From an uncultured bacterium (GTDB taxonomy: Bacteria > Krumholzibacteriota > Krumholzibacteriia > LZORAL124-64-63): 64,000 bases of DNA. The notes below the pieces were generated by a model that was not told the DNA's origin, did not search any database, and was given only the letters and a program-made list of their open reading frames with translations. The DNA lies in NCBI GenBank assembly GCA_963732385.1, contig CAVSZB010000003.1, positions 192,001-256,000 of the forward strand, read 5' to 3'. The position numbers and the translations under genes were made by a program. Shown piece after piece: positions 1 to 7,684 of this stretch; position 1 is the stretch's first letter; every line of letters begins with the position of its first letter.

Positions 1-336
1 TACACGGGGTTGGTGTCAAAGGAGCACTCCAGCGGCGAGCAACAACATCGTGGTTCGATCACCAAGGCGGGCAACACATTCCTAAGACGGATCCTAGTCG
101 AAGCCGCTTGGCACTACCAGTACAGGGTAGGCTCGACCTTGATCCTCGATCGCCGCCGGATGGGTCAGGATCCTGAAATGGTCGCGATCGCCGTGAAGGC
201 CCAGCATCGACTCGGCAGGCGATTCCATCACCTGGAGAAGACGAAGCATCGCAACAAGGTCGCCGTCGCGGTGGCCCGTGAACTGAGTGGATTCGTGTGG
301 GCCGCGATGTGGGTCGCAGCCACGAAGCAACACTAG
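1..336 (+). CDS. IS110-family transposase/recombinase, C-terminal part (5' truncated by window)
   Basis: Frame is open from base 1: YTGLVSKEHSSGEQQHRGSITKAGNTFLRRILVEAAW...KVAVAVARELSGFVWA, matching the IS110/IS116 Transposase_20 pattern (GLvP..hSSG...G.ItK.GN..LR..LveAA). Confidence 0.93.
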   Translation, partial: YTGLVSKEHSSGEQQHRGSITKAGNTFLRRILVEAAWHYQYRVGSTLILDRRRMGQDPEMVAIAVKAQHRLGRRFHHLEKTKHRNKVAVAVARELSGFVWAAMWVAATKQH

Positions 337-346
337 GACGCTGAGT

Positions 347-507
347 GGAGCAGGGACCGGTCAGGGGAATCCTCGTTTGAAGTATGCGGCAGGCCATGAG
401 CTGGACCCGCGGTGTTAGACGGAGGTCACCCCGAGACGGACAGAATTGTGTGCGGTAACCAACCCGCGGATATCAGTCTGATCAACCGTCGTTGCAGTCC
501 CTGCTCC
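347..507 (+). ncRNA. Candidate IS110 bridge/seek RNA
   Basis: Lies directly 3' of the transposase and is closed by an 11-bp long-range stem (GGAGCAGGGAC 347-357 / GTCCCTGCTCC 497-507). A perfect 10-bp hairpin follows at 527-550. Confidence 0.55.
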
Positions 508-591
508 CAACAACCAGGCGTAAGAAGGGCCCCGGCTGTCGCCGGGGCCCCCGAGGAGCGCACTAATCAACGTTTGACTAGCCGTTCCATA

Positions 592-3500
592 TCACTTCAC
601 CAGCGTCATCTTCTCCGTCTTCTCGTAGCTGCCGGCCTTCAGGCTGTAGAAGTACACGCCCGAGGAGACCGACTGACCGGTGGAGTTGCGGCCGTCCCAG
701 ATCACGGAGTGCGTCGTCGCATCCATGTTCTCGTTCAGCAGCGTCTTCACCAGTTCACCGCGCACGTTGTAGATCTTCAGCTCAACCTGGCTCTTGGCCG
801 GCAGGGTGAACTCGATTTTCGTGCTCGGGTTGAAAGGATTCGGGAAGTTCCTGGCCGTGAACACTGCCGCGGGCGTCACGCCCACTGCAGCCCCGCTAGG
901 CAACTTGCCGAAGAAGGCCAGAACGTCCATAAGGATCTGGGTACGGACCGCGATCCCGCCGGTCGGGGCCCCGTCCCAGATGATGCTCAGGTCGCAGGGC
1001 ATGAAAACGACGCGAGCCGTGTTGTCTGTGACGTTGTTGTAGACCGCCGCCGCGTACGGGTAGGCCCCGAGGGCGCCGGTCGGGCTGGTGAACTGGGCAA
1101 TCCGGACCGCCGGAGCGAGCGCGGTGACGGCGTCAAAGTCACTGATGAAGTTTGCACAGCCACCCTGCACCAGGTAGGACTTGGTCAGCACCGGCGCGTC
1201 CGCCACGGTGATCGGGCTCACGTGTGGCGTCAGCTGGCCACCAATAAGCGGCGCGAGGTTGAAGCCGTTGTATGCGACCTTGAACCACTTGTCTCTGAAC
1301 AGGACCGCGTTGACGCCGGAGCGTGACAGATCCTGGATGAGGTTATCTCCGGTGGCAAAGAAGTTCTTGCCGCCCTGATTCAGCCAGGCATCCAGACAGG
1401 CGATATCGTTGCCGGGATCGCCTTTTGTGGTGCTGGATATCGTATACGCGTCCAGGCTTCCTGAAGTGTAAAGCAACGTGTTGTAACCGGACATTTGCAG
1501 CGCGTTCGTCCGGCCGCCGAGGCCGTTGCCCAGGCCGGAGGACGGGCCGGCATTGCAGTAAATGTCATAGTCGATGCCCTGGCGGAAGCCGAGATTGTCC
1601 AGGGAAGAGAACCATTCATTCTGGTTGCTGCGGTCCTGGGAATCGTCCCAGAACAGCACTTCGGGCTGGACAAAGGTCGTATCACCCTTGTCCGGTGATA
1701 TCGTCATCGACATCGTCGGCAGAGCGTCAATCTTCCAGAGTTCATAATAGCAGTACGAGTCGTAGTGCAGGTCGCCCGGGAAATAGGAGAAGCCGGTGGT
1801 ATCTGTCGGCATGATCGTGACACCCTCAACCCCGCCCACGATGTCCGAGGCTCTGAAATAGTAGTGGAAACTGTCGCCGGGGAAGAAGAACCCGGTGTCG
1901 GGCAGGTCGAACTGGAAGAGGTTCGGCAGGCGAACCGGCGGAATGGACTCATTCCAGACCGTGTCGCCCAGCACGGTACCGTAGAGATAGGGACCGTCCT
2001 GGGTAAAGCCGGCCGGAATGGCCGTGCGGTAGGCGTCGAACAGGGGATTCATCTTCATCTTGACGTGCATGGTGGGCTGACCGGTAAGCACGGCGCCGTT
2101 GCGGACCGCCTTGACTGTCACGACGACAGAGTCGCCCGGAGTGTTGAGCACGTCGTCGGTGTTCCCGGCGATATCCACGCGCACCCAGTTCTGGGCCAGA
2201 TCCGTATAGTTGATTTCGGCATTTTCGGGCCAGCCGTCGTTGAACATGTTCCAATCACCATTGAACATGATCGCGGGCCCGCCGAAGGGGAAGGTGAGCA
2301 GCCTCACGTTGTCGAAATACGGTGCCGGCGTGTTGTCGTTGTTGGTATATTTATCGAGCCACGGCTCAGTTACGCCCAGCAGGATTTGGACCTTGTCGCG
2401 GCCGGAGTTCAGCAGGGAGGTCACTGCCTCGCCGTGCACGTAGTACTCGGCCAGAAGGCCGCCGTACCAGACGGTATTGAAATCCTTCCAGCCGCCGGGC
2501 CAGGTGAGACCGCCGTCCTTGGAGGTGCGGATGCCCCAGAAGTAGAAGATGCCGTTTTCGATCGGAAGGTGGGCGTAATTGTCCCACATTAAATAGCAGC
2601 CGTCGAAGCCTCCATCAGCGCCCCCGGGCCAATCCATAGGAGGTGACCAGACGCTGTTGTTGATCCCGTAAAGATCGCCGGCGAGACCACCGGTTGTCGT
2701 CACGCCCCAGCCACCGGGGCCGTAGTTCCAGGTCGTGCATTGAGTGCCGCCCGTCCCGGGGACCACAATGCCGTCGTCGATGAACGCCATTTGCGGCGTG
2801 TTGTTGCTGGCGCACACGTCGGCGTCCCCCAGCAACGGCCACACCTTGTGGAAATCTCCGACATACGGCGGTTTGACGTTGACCCAGTGCACCGGATCGC
2901 CGGGCTGGAAAGTATCATAAGTCTGCCGCACCTCAGCGTGCAGCTTGCCGAACAGCACCTCGATGTTGTCGAGCTGCGCGAGGCCATCGCTGGGCCAATA
3001 GCAGTCGTCGTCGGACCAGGCGCCGTCGGAATAACCGAGCCAGCGCAGGTGGATCTCGTTGTTGAGGTCCCCGACGTAGCAGTCCGGTTCTACGGTGAAG
3101 GCCACTTCCACAGCCACGGCGACATTCACGCCGTCCCAGGCGCTCGTCTTGCCCGCCTGTTCCATAACGCCGAGCTTCTCGACCTGGAGAATCAGATAGT
3201 CGTAGCGCTTCTCGGAATTGGAGTTGAAAATCGCTCTTACGGTGACGTCCGTGGCCACGGTATTGCTCGCGACCTGGCCGTACCAATCGAGCCAAAGGTT
3301 GTAGCCGTTAGCGTAGCCTTCGACCGGGTCCTCTTCGGTGCAGCTCGCTGCAAAAGTCTCGCCGCACCACATGGCGAGGTTGGCGGCGCCGAGGGGATCC
3401 AGGTTCGCGCAATTGTAGTCGGAGATGTGCCAAAAGGCCGTCATGTTCGTGATGTCCTTGCCGGTCCATCCCTGATCGTCCGGCACCAATGCCTTGGTTG

Positions 3501-3732
3501 AAGTCTGGAACTTGCCGTCCAGCCGGTCCGGGCCGCCCATAATATAAACTGTATCGGCCGCGGCTTTGCCGCTGCTCACGGGCCCGCCAGTAAGCGCGCT
3601 GTTGATGGCGCCCCTGGCGTTAAACGGGTAAAGCCGGCCCTGTCCGCTGTCATCCCTGGAAGAATCGCCAGCGATCGCGAGGCTGGCGAAGAGCGCCAGA
3701 GACAGACATACGGAAAATGTGAGTCTCCTCAT
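592..3732 (-). CDS. Large secreted protein (1046 aa) with C-terminal FlgD-Ig/T9SS type A-like sorting domain, copy 1
   Basis: N-terminal signal peptide (MRRLTFSVCLSLALFASLAIA); C-terminus FPNPFNPSTKIEFTLP...IYNVRGELVKTL...WDGRNSTGQSVSSGVYFYSLKAG. Confidence 0.9.
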   Translation of the reverse strand: MRRLTFSVCLSLALFASLAIAGDSSRDDSGQGRLYPFNARGAINSALTGGPVSSGKAAADTVYIMGGPDRLDGKFQTSTKALVPDDQGWTGKDITNMTAFWHISDYNCANLDPLGAANLAMWCGETFAASCTEEDPVEGYANGYNLWLDWYGQVASNTVATDVTVRAIFNSNSEKRYDYLILQVEKLGVMEQAGKTSAWDGVNVAVAVEVAFTVEPDCYVGDLNNEIHLRWLGYSDGAWSDDDCYWPSDGLAQLDNIEVLFGKLHAEVRQTYDTFQPGDPVHWVNVKPPYVGDFHKVWPLLGDADVCASNNTPQMAFIDDGIVVPGTGGTQCTTWNYGPGGWGVTTTGGLAGDLYGINNSVWSPPMDWPGGADGGFDGCYLMWDNYAHLPIENGIFYFWGIRTSKDGGLTWPGGWKDFNTVWYGGLLAEYYVHGEAVTSLLNSGRDKVQILLGVTEPWLDKYTNNDNTPAPYFDNVRLLTFPFGGPAIMFNGDWNMFNDGWPENAEINYTDLAQNWVRVDIAGNTDDVLNTPGDSVVVTVKAVRNGAVLTGQPTMHVKMKMNPLFDAYRTAIPAGFTQDGPYLYGTVLGDTVWNESIPPVRLPNLFQFDLPDTGFFFPGDSFHYYFRASDIVGGVEGVTIMPTDTTGFSYFPGDLHYDSYCYYELWKIDALPTMSMTISPDKGDTTFVQPEVLFWDDSQDRSNQNEWFSSLDNLGFRQGIDYDIYCNAGPSSGLGNGLGGRTNALQMSGYNTLLYTSGSLDAYTISSTTKGDPGNDIACLDAWLNQGGKNFFATGDNLIQDLSRSGVNAVLFRDKWFKVAYNGFNLAPLIGGQLTPHVSPITVADAPVLTKSYLVQGGCANFISDFDAVTALAPAVRIAQFTSPTGALGAYPYAAAVYNNVTDNTARVVFMPCDLSIIWDGAPTGGIAVRTQILMDVLAFFGKLPSGAAVGVTPAAVFTARNFPNPFNPSTKIEFTLPAKSQVELKIYNVRGELVKTLLNENMDATTHSVIWDGRNSTGQSVSSGVYFYSLKAGSYEKTEKMTLVK

Positions 3733-4504
3733 GTTTTCCCCCTAACGTTGATCCAATCAACGCAATCAAGGTTGCGCACACGTCACCGGCGGCCACTCAC
3801 TAACTCAGCCGGGAGCAAATCAAGGGAGGCCAAAGTTCATTCCCGCACAGTTTCGCGGCGCAAAGCCGGGCGAGAAATGAAGCTTACCTCCTTCGAATTG
3901 GAACGTGGGCGTATGGAACTTAGCTACAGTACCGAATGTCAAGTGCGCGGACGACTGAGAGAGTGGAACCCAGGGACAGCGCGCATTGCACGAACTTTTG
4001 CCCATGAGCCACTACATGAGACACAAAGGTGAGATTGGCCTCCTCTGTATATTTGGTGGGGAATGATGCAATTTGGAGCAACAGCAGCAGAAAGGGCTTG
4101 GGCGGGGGCATATCGACCCGAGCCATCGACCACGGCTTCGCCAGTCCTAAAGCCACATCGTCGAACCGCTCGGTCGCAAACACATCCATCTCCAGGCCCC
4201 TCTCTAAGCCTCAATGCCAGGCCAAGACCGGAATGGTCCAAACAGCGGCGCAGCACTGACGATAGGCTCAGCAGCAGGGCGGCGAGGATGGTATTGCAGA
4301 GACTTCCTGCCGGACTCTTCCCACGGGAAGCAGCGAGGAACATGAGGTTACCAAATTGCCGCCTCTCTGTCAACGGTCCCTGCATGGAGGTGAAGAACAA
4401 TCTCACCGTCTGTTATTAAATTTACCCTTTCGCCATATATGCAAACCTCTTAGGTTGGGCATTGTCGCTGTTTGTGAAATCCCCGGATCGGGCGCACCAA
4501 CAGA

Positions 4505-4531
4505 AGCGGCCCCCCGTGCGGGGGGGCCGCT
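4505..4531 (-). terminator. GC-rich hairpin, probable terminator of the copy-2 gene
   Basis: AGCGGCCCCCC-GTGCG-GGGGGGCCGCT, 30 nt downstream of the stop codon at 4562. Confidence 0.65.
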
Positions 4532-4561
4532 CCCTTGAGACTCGGCCGTGAAGCAACCGGA

Positions 4562-7500
4562 TCACTTCACCAGCGTCATCTTCTCCATCTTCTCGTAGCT
4601 GCCGGCCTTCAGGCTGTAGAAGTACACGCCCGAGGAGACCGACTGACCGGTGGAGTTGCGGCCGTCCCAGATCACGGAGTGCGTCGTCGCATCCATGTTC
4701 TCGTTCAGCAGCGTCTTCACCAGTTCACCGCGCACGTTGTAGATCTTCAGCTCAACCTGGCTCTTGGCCGGCAGGGTGAACTCGATTTTCGTGCTCGGGT
4801 TGAAAGGATTCGGGAAGTTCCTGGCCGTGAACACTGCCTCGGGCGTCACGCCCACTGCAGCCCCGCCAGGCAAATTGCCGAAGAAGGCCAGAACGTCCAT
4901 AAGGATCTGGGTACGGACCGCGATCCCGCCGGTCGGGGCGCCGTCCCAGATATTGCTCAGGTCGTAGGGCATGAAAACGACGCGAGCCGTGTTTTCTGTG
5001 ACGTTGTTGTAGACCGCCGCCGCGTACGGGTAGGCCCCGAGGGCGCCGGTCGGGCTGGTGAACTGGGCAATCCGGACCGCCGGAGCAAGCGCGGTGACGG
5101 CGTCAAAGTCACTGATGTAGTTTGCACAGCCACCCTGCACCAGGTAGGACTTGGTAAGCACAGGCGCGCCCGCGACGGTGATCGGGCTCACGTGCGGTGC
5201 AACCTGGCCGCCGATGAGCGGCGCGAGGTTGAAGCCGTTGTATGCGACCTTGAACCACTTGTCTCTGAACAGGACCGCATTGACGCCGGAGCGTGAGATG
5301 TCCTGGATGAGGTTATCTCCGGTGGCAAAGAAGTTCTTGCCGCCCTGATTCAGCCAGGCATCCAGACAGGCGATATCGTTGCCGGGATCGCCTTTTGTGG
5401 TGCTGGATATCGTATACGCGTCCAGGCTTCCTGAAGTGTAAAGCAGCGTGTTGTAACCGGACATTTTCAGCGCGTTCGTCCGGCCGCCGAGGCCGTTGCC
5501 CAGGCCGGAGGACGGGCCGGCATTGGCGTAAATGTCATAGTCGATGCCCTGGCGGAAGCCGAGATTGTCCAGGGAAGAGAACCATTCATTCTGGTTGCCG
5601 CGGTCCGCGGAATCGTCCCAGAACAGCAGGTGAGGCTGCCCAACGTCCTTCACCGCCGTGATCATCGTCGGCAGAGCGTCGACCTTCCAGACTTCATAAT
5701 AGCGGTACGAGTCGTAGTGCAGATCGCCAGGGAAATAGGAGAAACCGGTGGAATCCCTGGGCATTTGCGAGACACCGACAACCCCGCCCACGGTGTCCTC
5801 GGCTCTGATGTAGTAGTGGAAACTGTCGCCGGGGAAGAAGAACCCGGTGTCGGGCAGGTCGAACTGGAAGAGGTTCGGCAGGCGAACCGGCGGGATGGAC
5901 TCATTCCAGACCGTGTCGCCCAGCACGGTACCGTAGAGATAGGGACCGTCCTGGGTAAAGCCGGCCGGAATGGCCGTGCGGTAGGCGTCGAACAGGGGAT
6001 TCATCTTCATCTTGACGTGCATGGTGGGCGGACCGGTAAGCACGGCGCCGTTGCGGACCGCCTTGACTGTCACGACGACAGAGTCGCCCGGAGTGTTGGC
6101 AACGTCGTCGGTGTTCCCGGCGATGTCCACGCGCACCCAGTTCTGGGCCAGATCCGTATAGTTGATTTCGGCATTTTCGGGCCAGCCGTCGTTGAACAAG
6201 GCCCACTCACCCGTCACCGACAGCGCGGGCCCCCCGAAGGGGTAAACGGCCAGCGCCACGTTGTCGAAGTACGGCGACGGCGTGTTATCGTTGCTGAGAT
6301 ATTTATCGAGCCAGGGCTCAGTCACGCCCAACGAGAGCTGGACCGCGTTGCGGCCGGAGTTCAGCAGGGAGGTCACTCCATACCAGTCGCGGTAGTACTC
6401 ACCCAGGACGCCGCCGTAGATCACGGTATTGAAATCCTTCCAGCCTCCGGGCCAGGTGATGCCGCCGTCTTTGGAAGTGCGGATGCCCCAGAAGTAGAAG
6501 ATCCCGTTATCGATCGGGAGGTGGTTGTAAACGTCCCACAGGAAAGTGGCGCCGTCGTAGCCCCCATCAGCGCCCCCGGGCCAGGCCATTACGGGGGAAA
6601 TGACGCTGTTGTTGATCCCGTAAAGATCGCCGGCGAGACCACCGGTTGTCGTCACGCCCCAGCCACCGGGGCCGTAGTTCCAGGTCGTGCATTGAGTGCC
6701 GCCCGTCCCGGGGACCACAATGCCGTCGTCGATGAACGCCATTTGCGGCGTGTTGTTGCTAAGACACACGTCGGCGTCCCCCAGCAACGGCCACACCTTG
6801 TGGAATTCGCCGACATACGGCGGTTTGACGTTGACCCAGTGCACCGGATCGCCGGGCTGGAAAGTATCATAAGTCTGCCGCACCTCAGCGTGCAGCTTGC
6901 CGAAGAGCACCTCGATGTTGTCGAGCTGCGCGAGGCCATCGCTGGGCCAATAGCAGTCGCCGTCGGACCAGCCGGTGTCGGAATAACCGAGCCAGCGCAG
7001 GTGGATCTCGTTGTTGAGATCCCCGACGTAGCTGTCCGGTTCTACGGTGAAGGCCACTTCCACAGCCACGGCGACATTCACGCCGTCCCAGGCGCTCGTC
7101 TTGCCCGCCTGTTCCATAACGCCGAGCTTCTCGACCTGGAGAATCAGATAGTCGTAGCGCTTCTCGGAATTGGAGTTGAAAATCGCTCTTACGGTGACGT
7201 CCGTGGCCACGGTATTGCTCGCGACCTGGCCGTACCAATCGAGCCAAAGGTTATAGTTGTTATCGTAGCCTTCGACCGGATCCACTTCACTGCAGGATCC
7301 GGAGAAAACCTCGCCGCACCACATGGCGAGGTTGGCGGCGCCGAGGGGATCCAGGTTCGCGCAATTGTAGTCGGAGATGTGCCAGGTTGCCGTCATGTTC
7401 GTGTCGTCATTGCCGGTCCATCCCTGATCGTCAGGCACCAATGCCTTGGTCGAAGACTCGAACTTTCCGTCCAGCCGGTTCGGTCCGCCCATGATATAAA

Positions 7501-7684
7501 CTGAATCGACGGCGGCCTTGCCGCTGCTCACGGGCCCGCCAGTAAGCGCGCTGTTGTTGGCGCCCCTGGCGTTAAACGGGTAAAGCCGGGCCTGTCCGCT
7601 GTCATCCCTGGAAGAATCGTCGGCGATCGCGAGGCTGGCGAAGAGCGCCAGAGACAGACATACGGTAAATGTGAGTCTCTTCAT
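4562..7684 (-). CDS. Large secreted protein (1040 aa) with C-terminal FlgD-Ig/T9SS type A-like sorting domain, copy 2
   Basis: Near-identical paralogue of 592..3732, with a near-identical signal peptide and C-terminal domain. Confidence 0.9.
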   Translation of the reverse strand: MKRLTFTVCLSLALFASLAIADDSSRDDSGQARLYPFNARGANNSALTGGPVSSGKAAVDSVYIMGGPNRLDGKFESSTKALVPDDQGWTGNDDTNMTATWHISDYNCANLDPLGAANLAMWCGEVFSGSCSEVDPVEGYDNNYNLWLDWYGQVASNTVATDVTVRAIFNSNSEKRYDYLILQVEKLGVMEQAGKTSAWDGVNVAVAVEVAFTVEPDSYVGDLNNEIHLRWLGYSDTGWSDGDCYWPSDGLAQLDNIEVLFGKLHAEVRQTYDTFQPGDPVHWVNVKPPYVGEFHKVWPLLGDADVCLSNNTPQMAFIDDGIVVPGTGGTQCTTWNYGPGGWGVTTTGGLAGDLYGINNSVISPVMAWPGGADGGYDGATFLWDVYNHLPIDNGIFYFWGIRTSKDGGITWPGGWKDFNTVIYGGVLGEYYRDWYGVTSLLNSGRNAVQLSLGVTEPWLDKYLSNDNTPSPYFDNVALAVYPFGGPALSVTGEWALFNDGWPENAEINYTDLAQNWVRVDIAGNTDDVANTPGDSVVVTVKAVRNGAVLTGPPTMHVKMKMNPLFDAYRTAIPAGFTQDGPYLYGTVLGDTVWNESIPPVRLPNLFQFDLPDTGFFFPGDSFHYYIRAEDTVGGVVGVSQMPRDSTGFSYFPGDLHYDSYRYYEVWKVDALPTMITAVKDVGQPHLLFWDDSADRGNQNEWFSSLDNLGFRQGIDYDIYANAGPSSGLGNGLGGRTNALKMSGYNTLLYTSGSLDAYTISSTTKGDPGNDIACLDAWLNQGGKNFFATGDNLIQDISRSGVNAVLFRDKWFKVAYNGFNLAPLIGGQVAPHVSPITVAGAPVLTKSYLVQGGCANYISDFDAVTALAPAVRIAQFTSPTGALGAYPYAAAVYNNVTENTARVVFMPYDLSNIWDGAPTGGIAVRTQILMDVLAFFGNLPGGAAVGVTPEAVFTARNFPNPFNPSTKIEFTLPAKSQVELKIYNVRGELVKTLLNENMDATTHSVIWDGRNSTGQSVSSGVYFYSLKAGSYEKMEKMTLVK

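Follow-up and report, generated by a model that had tools for sequence, protein, structure and literature searches.

An IS110-family recombinase gene runs into the left edge of the DNA analysed here, a stretch of 64,000 nucleotides (the window, G000:C3:192001-256000), and the element that carries it ends at the stop codon of a host gene. This arrangement raises the question of whether an RNA encoded by the element guides it to that codon. Our best explanation, which we consider very probable, is that this is an IS1111-type RNA-guided element that homes to the stop codons of sorting-domain genes and restores the stop when it inserts.

An IS1111-type element joined to the stop codon of a host gene

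1..336 (+): 3' end of the recombinase gene (371 aa, IS110-family DEDD), whose start lies before the window, at G000:C3:191221
527..550 (-): GC hairpin followed by U-rich sequence; a possible terminator for host transcript entering the element
574..579 (+): -35 hexamer TTGACT, 17 nt from the left-end CATAAT -10 once the element circularises
580..593 (+): right subterminal inverted repeat (580-590) with a 3-bp extension (591-593), matching the 11-bp left repeat behind its 7-bp extension
592..3732 (-): host gene, 1046 aa, with a C-terminal FlgD_ig / type IX secretion sorting domain (open reading frame, profiles)
592..594 (-): replacement TGA stop that closes the host open reading frame 592-3732; the element contributes two of its bases and the target one
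594..599 (+): right target half ACTTCA, antisense of the last host codons (Val-Lys)

The recombinase has Pfam matches to DEDD_Tnp_IS110 and Transposase_20 and a match to NCBIfam NF033542 (239 bits, cut-off 140), and residues D14, E62, D100, D103 and S270-S271-G272 do not change among 11 relatives. Its sequence places it in the IS110 superfamily, with a RuvC-like DEDD domain and a Tnp domain that carries a serine motif. Among solved structures, only IS621 and ISCro4 matched (PDB 8WT6 family, IS621, profile E 1.4e-14), and no IS1111-type structure was among the matches.

The left end of the element was read from the DNA upstream of the window, and the pre-insertion site carries T before ACTTCA. 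The element is 1474 bp long and is present in three identical copies in the genome, all of them at sorting-domain stop codons. In each copy, the subterminal inverted repeats of 11 bp carry an outer extension, 7 bp long at the left end and 3 bp long at the right end. Because IS1111 elements follow this 7-bp/3-bp extension rule (PMC11187229, used here and below in excerpt), we placed the element end at window position 593, and empty paralogous sites fixed the boundary. The flanks of the three copies and the empty sites revealed no target duplication. The first-pass annotation had located the junction at the stop codon of the minus-strand gene at 592-3732 and had noted an outward-facing TTGACT; both readings were borne out, with the hexamer at 574-579.

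Non-coding DNA in the element amounts to 257 nt downstream of the recombinase gene versus 101 nt upstream. A promoter-like pattern spanning the joined ends was found in 65/76 elements under a loose, sequence-only definition. A promoter scan of the linear element gave none, and no circle junctions were found in two RNA runs, which consisted of contigs of relatives with partial cover. Hairpins resembling that at 527-550 occur in 20/77 elements, mostly from the same subclade; a terminator scan did not call the 527-550 hairpin. This hairpin may replace the host terminator that insertion leaves stranded in the left flank.

Structural criteria, and not tree position, assign the element to the IS1111 type. 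Like the IS1111 seekRNA elements ISEc11, ISKpn4, ISPst6 and ISPa11 (PMC11187229), it combines a DEDD transposase, 11-bp subterminal repeats and extensions of 7 and 3 bp with a long non-coding region downstream, no target duplication and natural reprogramming. IS1111 elements have a junction promoter, the counterpart here being the promoter-like TTGACT/CATAAT. The transposase differs in length, since its 371 aa fall outside the IS1111 range of 330-350 aa, and repeat-bearing exceptions exist in a deep IS110 branch (PMC11187229).

Relatives above 50% identity were found at 128 loci, which gave 90 distinct loci with a parsable right end; 11 were duplicates, five were missed or unresolved and most of the others were incomplete. 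The 90 loci formed 77 clusters at 90% RNA identity, the target arm was parsed in 75 and the tree was built on 74. The phylum-level search set was the same as the class-level set (208 genomes), and the relatives came from records of Krumholzibacteriia, Fibrobacteraceae, Gemmatimonadota and Eisenbacteria. Only two matches, both distant, came from viral contigs. Eight plasmid relatives at ~42% identity mostly share the RNA scaffold. Three plasmid relatives with a parsable end have the same stop-forming end without a sorting-domain stop as target, so the stop-forming end predates the stop-codon habit.

The downstream RNA is predicted to fold into two arms

347..507 (+): predicted bridge/seek RNA with closing stem 347-357/497-507 (fold and covariation, from sequence alone)
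356..363 (+): end of the closing stem plus multiloop linker, not a guide (no covariation with flanks)
364..432 (+): target-binding arm, helices 364-367/429-432, 372-374/422-424 and 385-389/407-411 (consensus structure)
436..489 (+): donor-binding arm, helices 436-439/486-489 and 451-455/464-468 (consensus structure, covariation)

The 11-bp stem 347-357/497-507 proposed in the first-pass annotation is perfect in sequence, and the surrounding region (337-590) folds at z -4.26. A consensus built on 48 of the 75 RNAs, picked for similar length, comprises the closing stem and two arms with an internal loop in each. Compensatory changes were found at 17/29 consensus pairs in these 48 RNAs, a count that 0/500 shuffles reached, and slid controls scored far lower than the real alignment. 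A TTAGAC/GTCTGA pairing within the RNA, which had appeared in a single-sequence fold, was rejected because it is absent from the consensus. No Rfam family came near its gathering score in 1-1500, and blastn against the genome revealed no stand-alone RNA copy.

Guides in the first arm covary with both target strands

378..384 (+): right target guide TGAAGTA, 7 nt, complementary to the top strand over T+6 to T-1 (covariation)
415..417 (+): left target guide TTA, pairing with the bottom strand, antisense of the stop codon (covariation; 414 possibly adds to it)

We scanned all RNA columns against all flank positions without bias. On one diagonal of the scan, 378-382 and 384 were complementary to T+6 to T-1. 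Watson-Crick pairing was found at 379 in 52/72 elements (permutation mean 26.9), at 380 in 71/73 (44.6), at 381 in 71/73 (41.7), at 382 in 58/74 (33.3) and at 384 in 61/64 (46.4), with 383 invariant across RNAs. On a second diagonal, 415-416 were identical to T-2 and T-1: base 415 matched the left-flank base in 58/63 elements (permutation mean 31.8) and base 416 in 64/64 (44.4). Position 414 was marginal (24/60 versus 17.5), and 377, 412 and 413 showed no covariation signal with the flanks. A 6-nt left guide at 412-417 was rejected; 415-417 holds, with 414 marginal. Left-flank information is close to zero beyond T-2, and none of the top signals reflected guide-target covariation beyond T+6. 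The left guide lies on the other side of the internal loop that holds the right guide, and the two follow the reversed IS1111 order; in IS1111 seekRNAs the top-strand guide likewise lies 5' of the bottom-strand guide (PMC11187229).

Independent pairs on the tree gave the same picture. Guide and target changed together in 11/11 pairs that switch between Lys and Arg codons, and the guide followed the target in 6/6 pairs that contrast TGA with other stops. Among pairs contrasting TAA with TAG, ~6/9 were concordant and none was opposite, while position 379 was concordant in 9.7/10. Guide changes on the tree numbered at least 20 and at least 22.

From this covariation, the first arm of 347-507 is predicted to be a target-binding loop that reads both target strands. 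The first-pass annotation had suggested just such a loop of an RNA-guided IS110/IS1111 recombinase, partly because TGAAGT (378-383), when reverse-complemented, gives the right-flank ACTTCA (594-599). The match is exact and the segment covaries with the right flank, and the addition of 384 extends the guide to 7 nt.

A second arm tracks the ends of the element

470..475 (+): left donor guide (covariation with the element end)
near 445-448 (+): right donor guide, weaker (40/62 and 44/62 versus 17.7 and 20.4; register variable)

Base 474 agreed with the last base of the element in 72/72 cases (permutation mean 40.1), and 473 agreed in 71/72 (permutation mean 41.6). The counts for the right donor guide include some mis-anchored rows. 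Covariation thus indicates that the second arm tracks both donor halves of the element's own ends, clearly on the left and more weakly on the right. The first-pass annotation had included neither this donor-binding loop (436-489) nor the clade-wide aim at secretion-signal stop codons described below.

Two cross-arm signals resemble the handshake pairing described for IS621 (PMC11208158, in excerpt). Base 420 agreed with D+4 in 42/64 elements, which was not significant on independent pairs, and 420 as a handshake base is unsupported by that test. Base 477 agreed with T+3 in 63/70 (p ~0.03), and pairing with RNA base 381 explains this signal equally well.

Most insertions sit in, and rebuild, the stop codons of sorting-domain genes

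The host gene in the window has Pfam matches to FlgD_ig at 38.1 bits and to Por_Secre_tail at 30.1 bits (both with a cut-off of 27), and it matches TIGR04183 (31 bits, cut-off 23). The genome encodes ~93 sorting-domain genes, together with homologues of the type IX secretion proteins SprA (G000:C4:162482-166537) and PorV (C7:226138-226731).

Read on the host strand, the guide consists of a hydrophobic codon, a Lys or Arg codon and a stop. The T at 378 that specifies the hydrophobic codon is present in 72/74 elements, the guide spells Lys or Arg in 69/74, and the left guide is an antisense stop in 73/74. The residue spelt by the guide is the last residue of the host protein in 70/72 elements. 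Of the 73 insertions whose flank reached 90 nt or more, 57 had a Pfam FlgD_ig or Por_Secre_tail match in the junction frame with E no higher than 0.01 (the scan covered 70; three had frames shorter than 20 aa). The 16/73 without a Pfam match include some short fragments with the same tail and ~10 that are truly elsewhere. An own-genome profile, partly circular because it was seeded from these flanks, matched 60/73 in the junction frame and 0 in the other two frames.

The pre-insertion triplet was a stop in 72/75 cases. Empty paralogous sites carry TAA, and the occupied host copy in the window reads TGA. The triplet supplied by the element was a stop in 90/90 kept loci (TGA 63, TAG 24, TAA 3), a result partly built in, since three of the four ends that the pattern permitted form stops. 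When the element ends were audited, L076 proved to be a non-stop counter-example, L066 and L105 turned out to be stop-forming loci that had been missed, and two loci gave no end.

Several further loci are recorded here. L013, a relative with its target arm deleted, lies at a non-stop site unlike the others; the left flank of L076 is very similar to that of L013, and a G follows its right end. The left flank of L106 ends like the right end of another element, which suggests tandem insertion at a rebuilt stop. Relic right ends without a transposase lie at the stops of similar genes (C3:169050-169070, C5:377574 and C4:12097-12221). A second IS1111-type family at ~41% identity (G000:C6:53883-55400, which is L165, with L151, L154, L156, L163 and the closer L072) inserts at stops that follow a W/F-G-x-x-K-x-x-Y/F-R-like motif and also supplies TGA. 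This motif may be a second sorting signal.

Empty matches to the guide outnumber insertions

4555..4570 (+): unoccupied paralogous site where gene 4562-7684 ends in TGA; its C at 4563 is mismatched to 384 and forms a wobble pair with 416

The first-pass annotation gave the sequence of 4555-4570 correctly, but as the empty target this paralogous site falls short, since one core-adjacent base mismatches the guide and exact empty sites lie elsewhere. Three empty paralogous sites (C3:187267, C7:175702 and C4:90455) have T before ACTTCA, like the left flank of the occupied copy. Because position 4563 is a C where T is found elsewhere, we regard 4555-4570 as a near miss and not the exact pre-insertion site. 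We rejected the idea that 4555-4570 is the true empty site and shares an AT core with the element: the other copies have GC, and the other paralogues have T. The C at 4563 is the base that the right end of the element would leave, and it could be an excision footprint or a product of gene conversion from copy 1, but TGA is also common at sorting-domain stops (7 such genes). Three tandem paralogues encode a secreted protein of roughly 1045 aa, 82-90% identical (window 592-7684 and G000:C3:187268-190396). Two further paralogues of this ~1045-aa protein lie on C4 and C7, and Pfam recognises only its C-terminal sorting domain.

The 8-nt target derived from the guide has 164 empty matches in the genome, of which 103 lie inside roughly predicted genes, 35 are intergenic or unassigned and 26 are at gene stops; 8 are at sorting-domain stops. 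With so many empty matches, 103 of them within predicted genes, the guide alone is insufficient to explain placement. The presence of 3/3 copies at sorting-domain stops has p 0.0002 against all 167 sites, and p 0.012 if A at T+9 is also needed, and we infer that selection or an extra recognition layer contributes. T+9 is A in 64/67 right flanks, with no RNA base that covaries with it, and also in 8/11 long-enough insertions that lack a clear sorting-domain match.

Alternative explanations for the choice of target

The most serious alternative accepts the RNA guide as real but loose (~8 nt): the element would insert at any match, and selection would purge hits in genes and operons, so that the pattern reflects survival and not aim. 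The 164 empty matches and their distribution fit this account, as does the lack of further covariation beyond T+6 among the top signals. We nonetheless think it unlikely, because the guides have changed at least 20 times, in some cases by multi-base switches from Lys to Arg, and still keep to Lys/Arg-stop, and because ~60 non-coding or stop sites seem tolerable, yet 3/3 copies are in the 11 sorting-domain ones. Selection acting on guide lineages would, moreover, produce the same strategy anyway. Far less probable is that a protein or a DNA structure, such as a host terminator hairpin by the stop, picks the target and leaves the RNA matches as by-products. Many left flanks do contain GC hairpins, and the A at T+9 lacks a covarying RNA base, but the base-by-base covariation survives independent-pair tests, and L013, whose target arm is missing, is at a non-stop site. 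Recognition by protein or structure could supplement the guide, not replace it.

We give almost no credence to an IS621-like loop in which a left guide at 356-363 precedes a right guide at 378-383 and the two read a ~14-nt target like 4555-4570. The first-pass annotation had favored this arrangement while allowing that its matches could be chance. ACCGGTCA is present at 356-363 and the left flank of the copy described here contains ACCGG, but the two other identical copies have unrelated left flanks without ACCGG. In 61 elements, the mean longest match of 356-363 to the left flank was 2.39 versus 2.57 when shuffled, with 289/300 shuffles at least as high, and the segment overlaps the closing stem by 2 nt. 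It also lacks covariation with the flanks, L002 has the same 356-363 next to another flank, and left-flank information is near zero past T-2. Thus, of the proposed guides, 378-384 exceeds chance and tracks its flank, whereas 356-363 does neither and the real left guide is 415-417.

Comparison with known RNA-guided elements

Like IS621 (PMC11208160 and PMC11208158, both in excerpt), the element is predicted to encode one RNA with target and donor arms that each read both strands, and its recombinase conserves composite DEDD and serine residues. In those excerpts, the IS621 RNA lies upstream, its left guide comes first and recognition covers ~14 nt around a CT core common to target and donor; the present RNA lies downstream, with the guide order reversed, and reads ~8 nt. 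Target and donor share only the junction A (T-then-A versus C-then-A), unlike IS621. A donor-reading arm is seen here by covariation, which is a difference from IS1111 as excerpted. IS1111 targets described there are short linear sites, attC sites and REP, whereas the present targets are last codons plus a stop that is rebuilt.

The nearest named element belongs to the ISSfr2 family (transposase 42.6% identical), which has the same RNA scaffold motifs downstream but a different end sequence; inspected plasmid relatives were not at sorting-domain stops. ISEc21, of the IS110 group (PMC11187229), likewise directs its guide to codons that are conserved within a protein family. It disrupts catalytic codons inside IS3 transposases, whereas the clade described here inserts on the stop and preserves the protein.

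The mechanism is known, and the target strategy (stop codon, sorting domain) is new as far as the literature examined goes. Neither the excerpts nor the papers listed by literature searches described stop-codon or sorting-domain targeting. The term 'stop codon' was absent or irrelevant in passages of PMC11208160, PMC13626964 and PMC13604230, as it was in passages of 10.1101/2024.04.26.591405, 10.64898/2026.04.29.721476 and 10.64898/2026.10.21.760802. This clade may be listed in the tables of targets that accompany PMC11208160 and PMC11187229, or in the 10.64898/2026.10.21.760802 database.

Model and implications

We propose that the element, by analogy with IS1111 biology, excises as a circle whose joined ends form a promoter for the recombinase and the downstream RNA. 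The first arm would present a 7-nt guide to the top strand (378-384) and then a 3-nt guide to the bottom strand (415-417), and the second arm would read the joined element ends (470-475 and, more weakly, 445-448); the pairings of both arms rest on covariation. On the host strand, the target is a hydrophobic codon, Lys or Arg and a stop, that is, the tail of a type IX secretion sorting domain. Insertion takes place inside the stop codon, antiparallel to the host gene, and two end bases plus one retained base make a new stop (here TAA to TGA). The host protein would be unchanged, and a large family of secreted proteins would therefore offer a supply of near-harmless landing sites. The guide has been re-aimed many times with the motif kept, and we infer adaptive targeting, aided by the loss of harmful insertions elsewhere.

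A wider joint reading is tentative, and we hold it to be somewhat less probable than not. In it, the whole lineage would read host sorting signals at the codon level and swap one stop for another, with one subclade bringing a replacement terminator, and a sister lineage would home to the W/F-G-x-x-K-x-x-Y/F-R signal. Because an 8-nt guide cannot give such specificity, this reading adds an extra recognition layer, either a protein-read T+9 or coupling to transcription termination, and it includes cross-arm pairing mirrored relative to IS621. If it were true, an RNA-guided lineage would have evolved to read protein-sorting signals.

The 75 naturally reprogrammed guides and their targets provide a base-by-base map of an IS1111-type RNA, donor arm included, and the extent to which an 8-nt guide falls short of the specificity seen bears on how these recombinases choose sites. 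For the family that we favor, an RNA-guided element homing to sorting-domain stops, the locus would represent natural insertion at the 3' end of a gene that leaves the protein scarless, with the sorting signal of a gene family serving as a renewable safe site.
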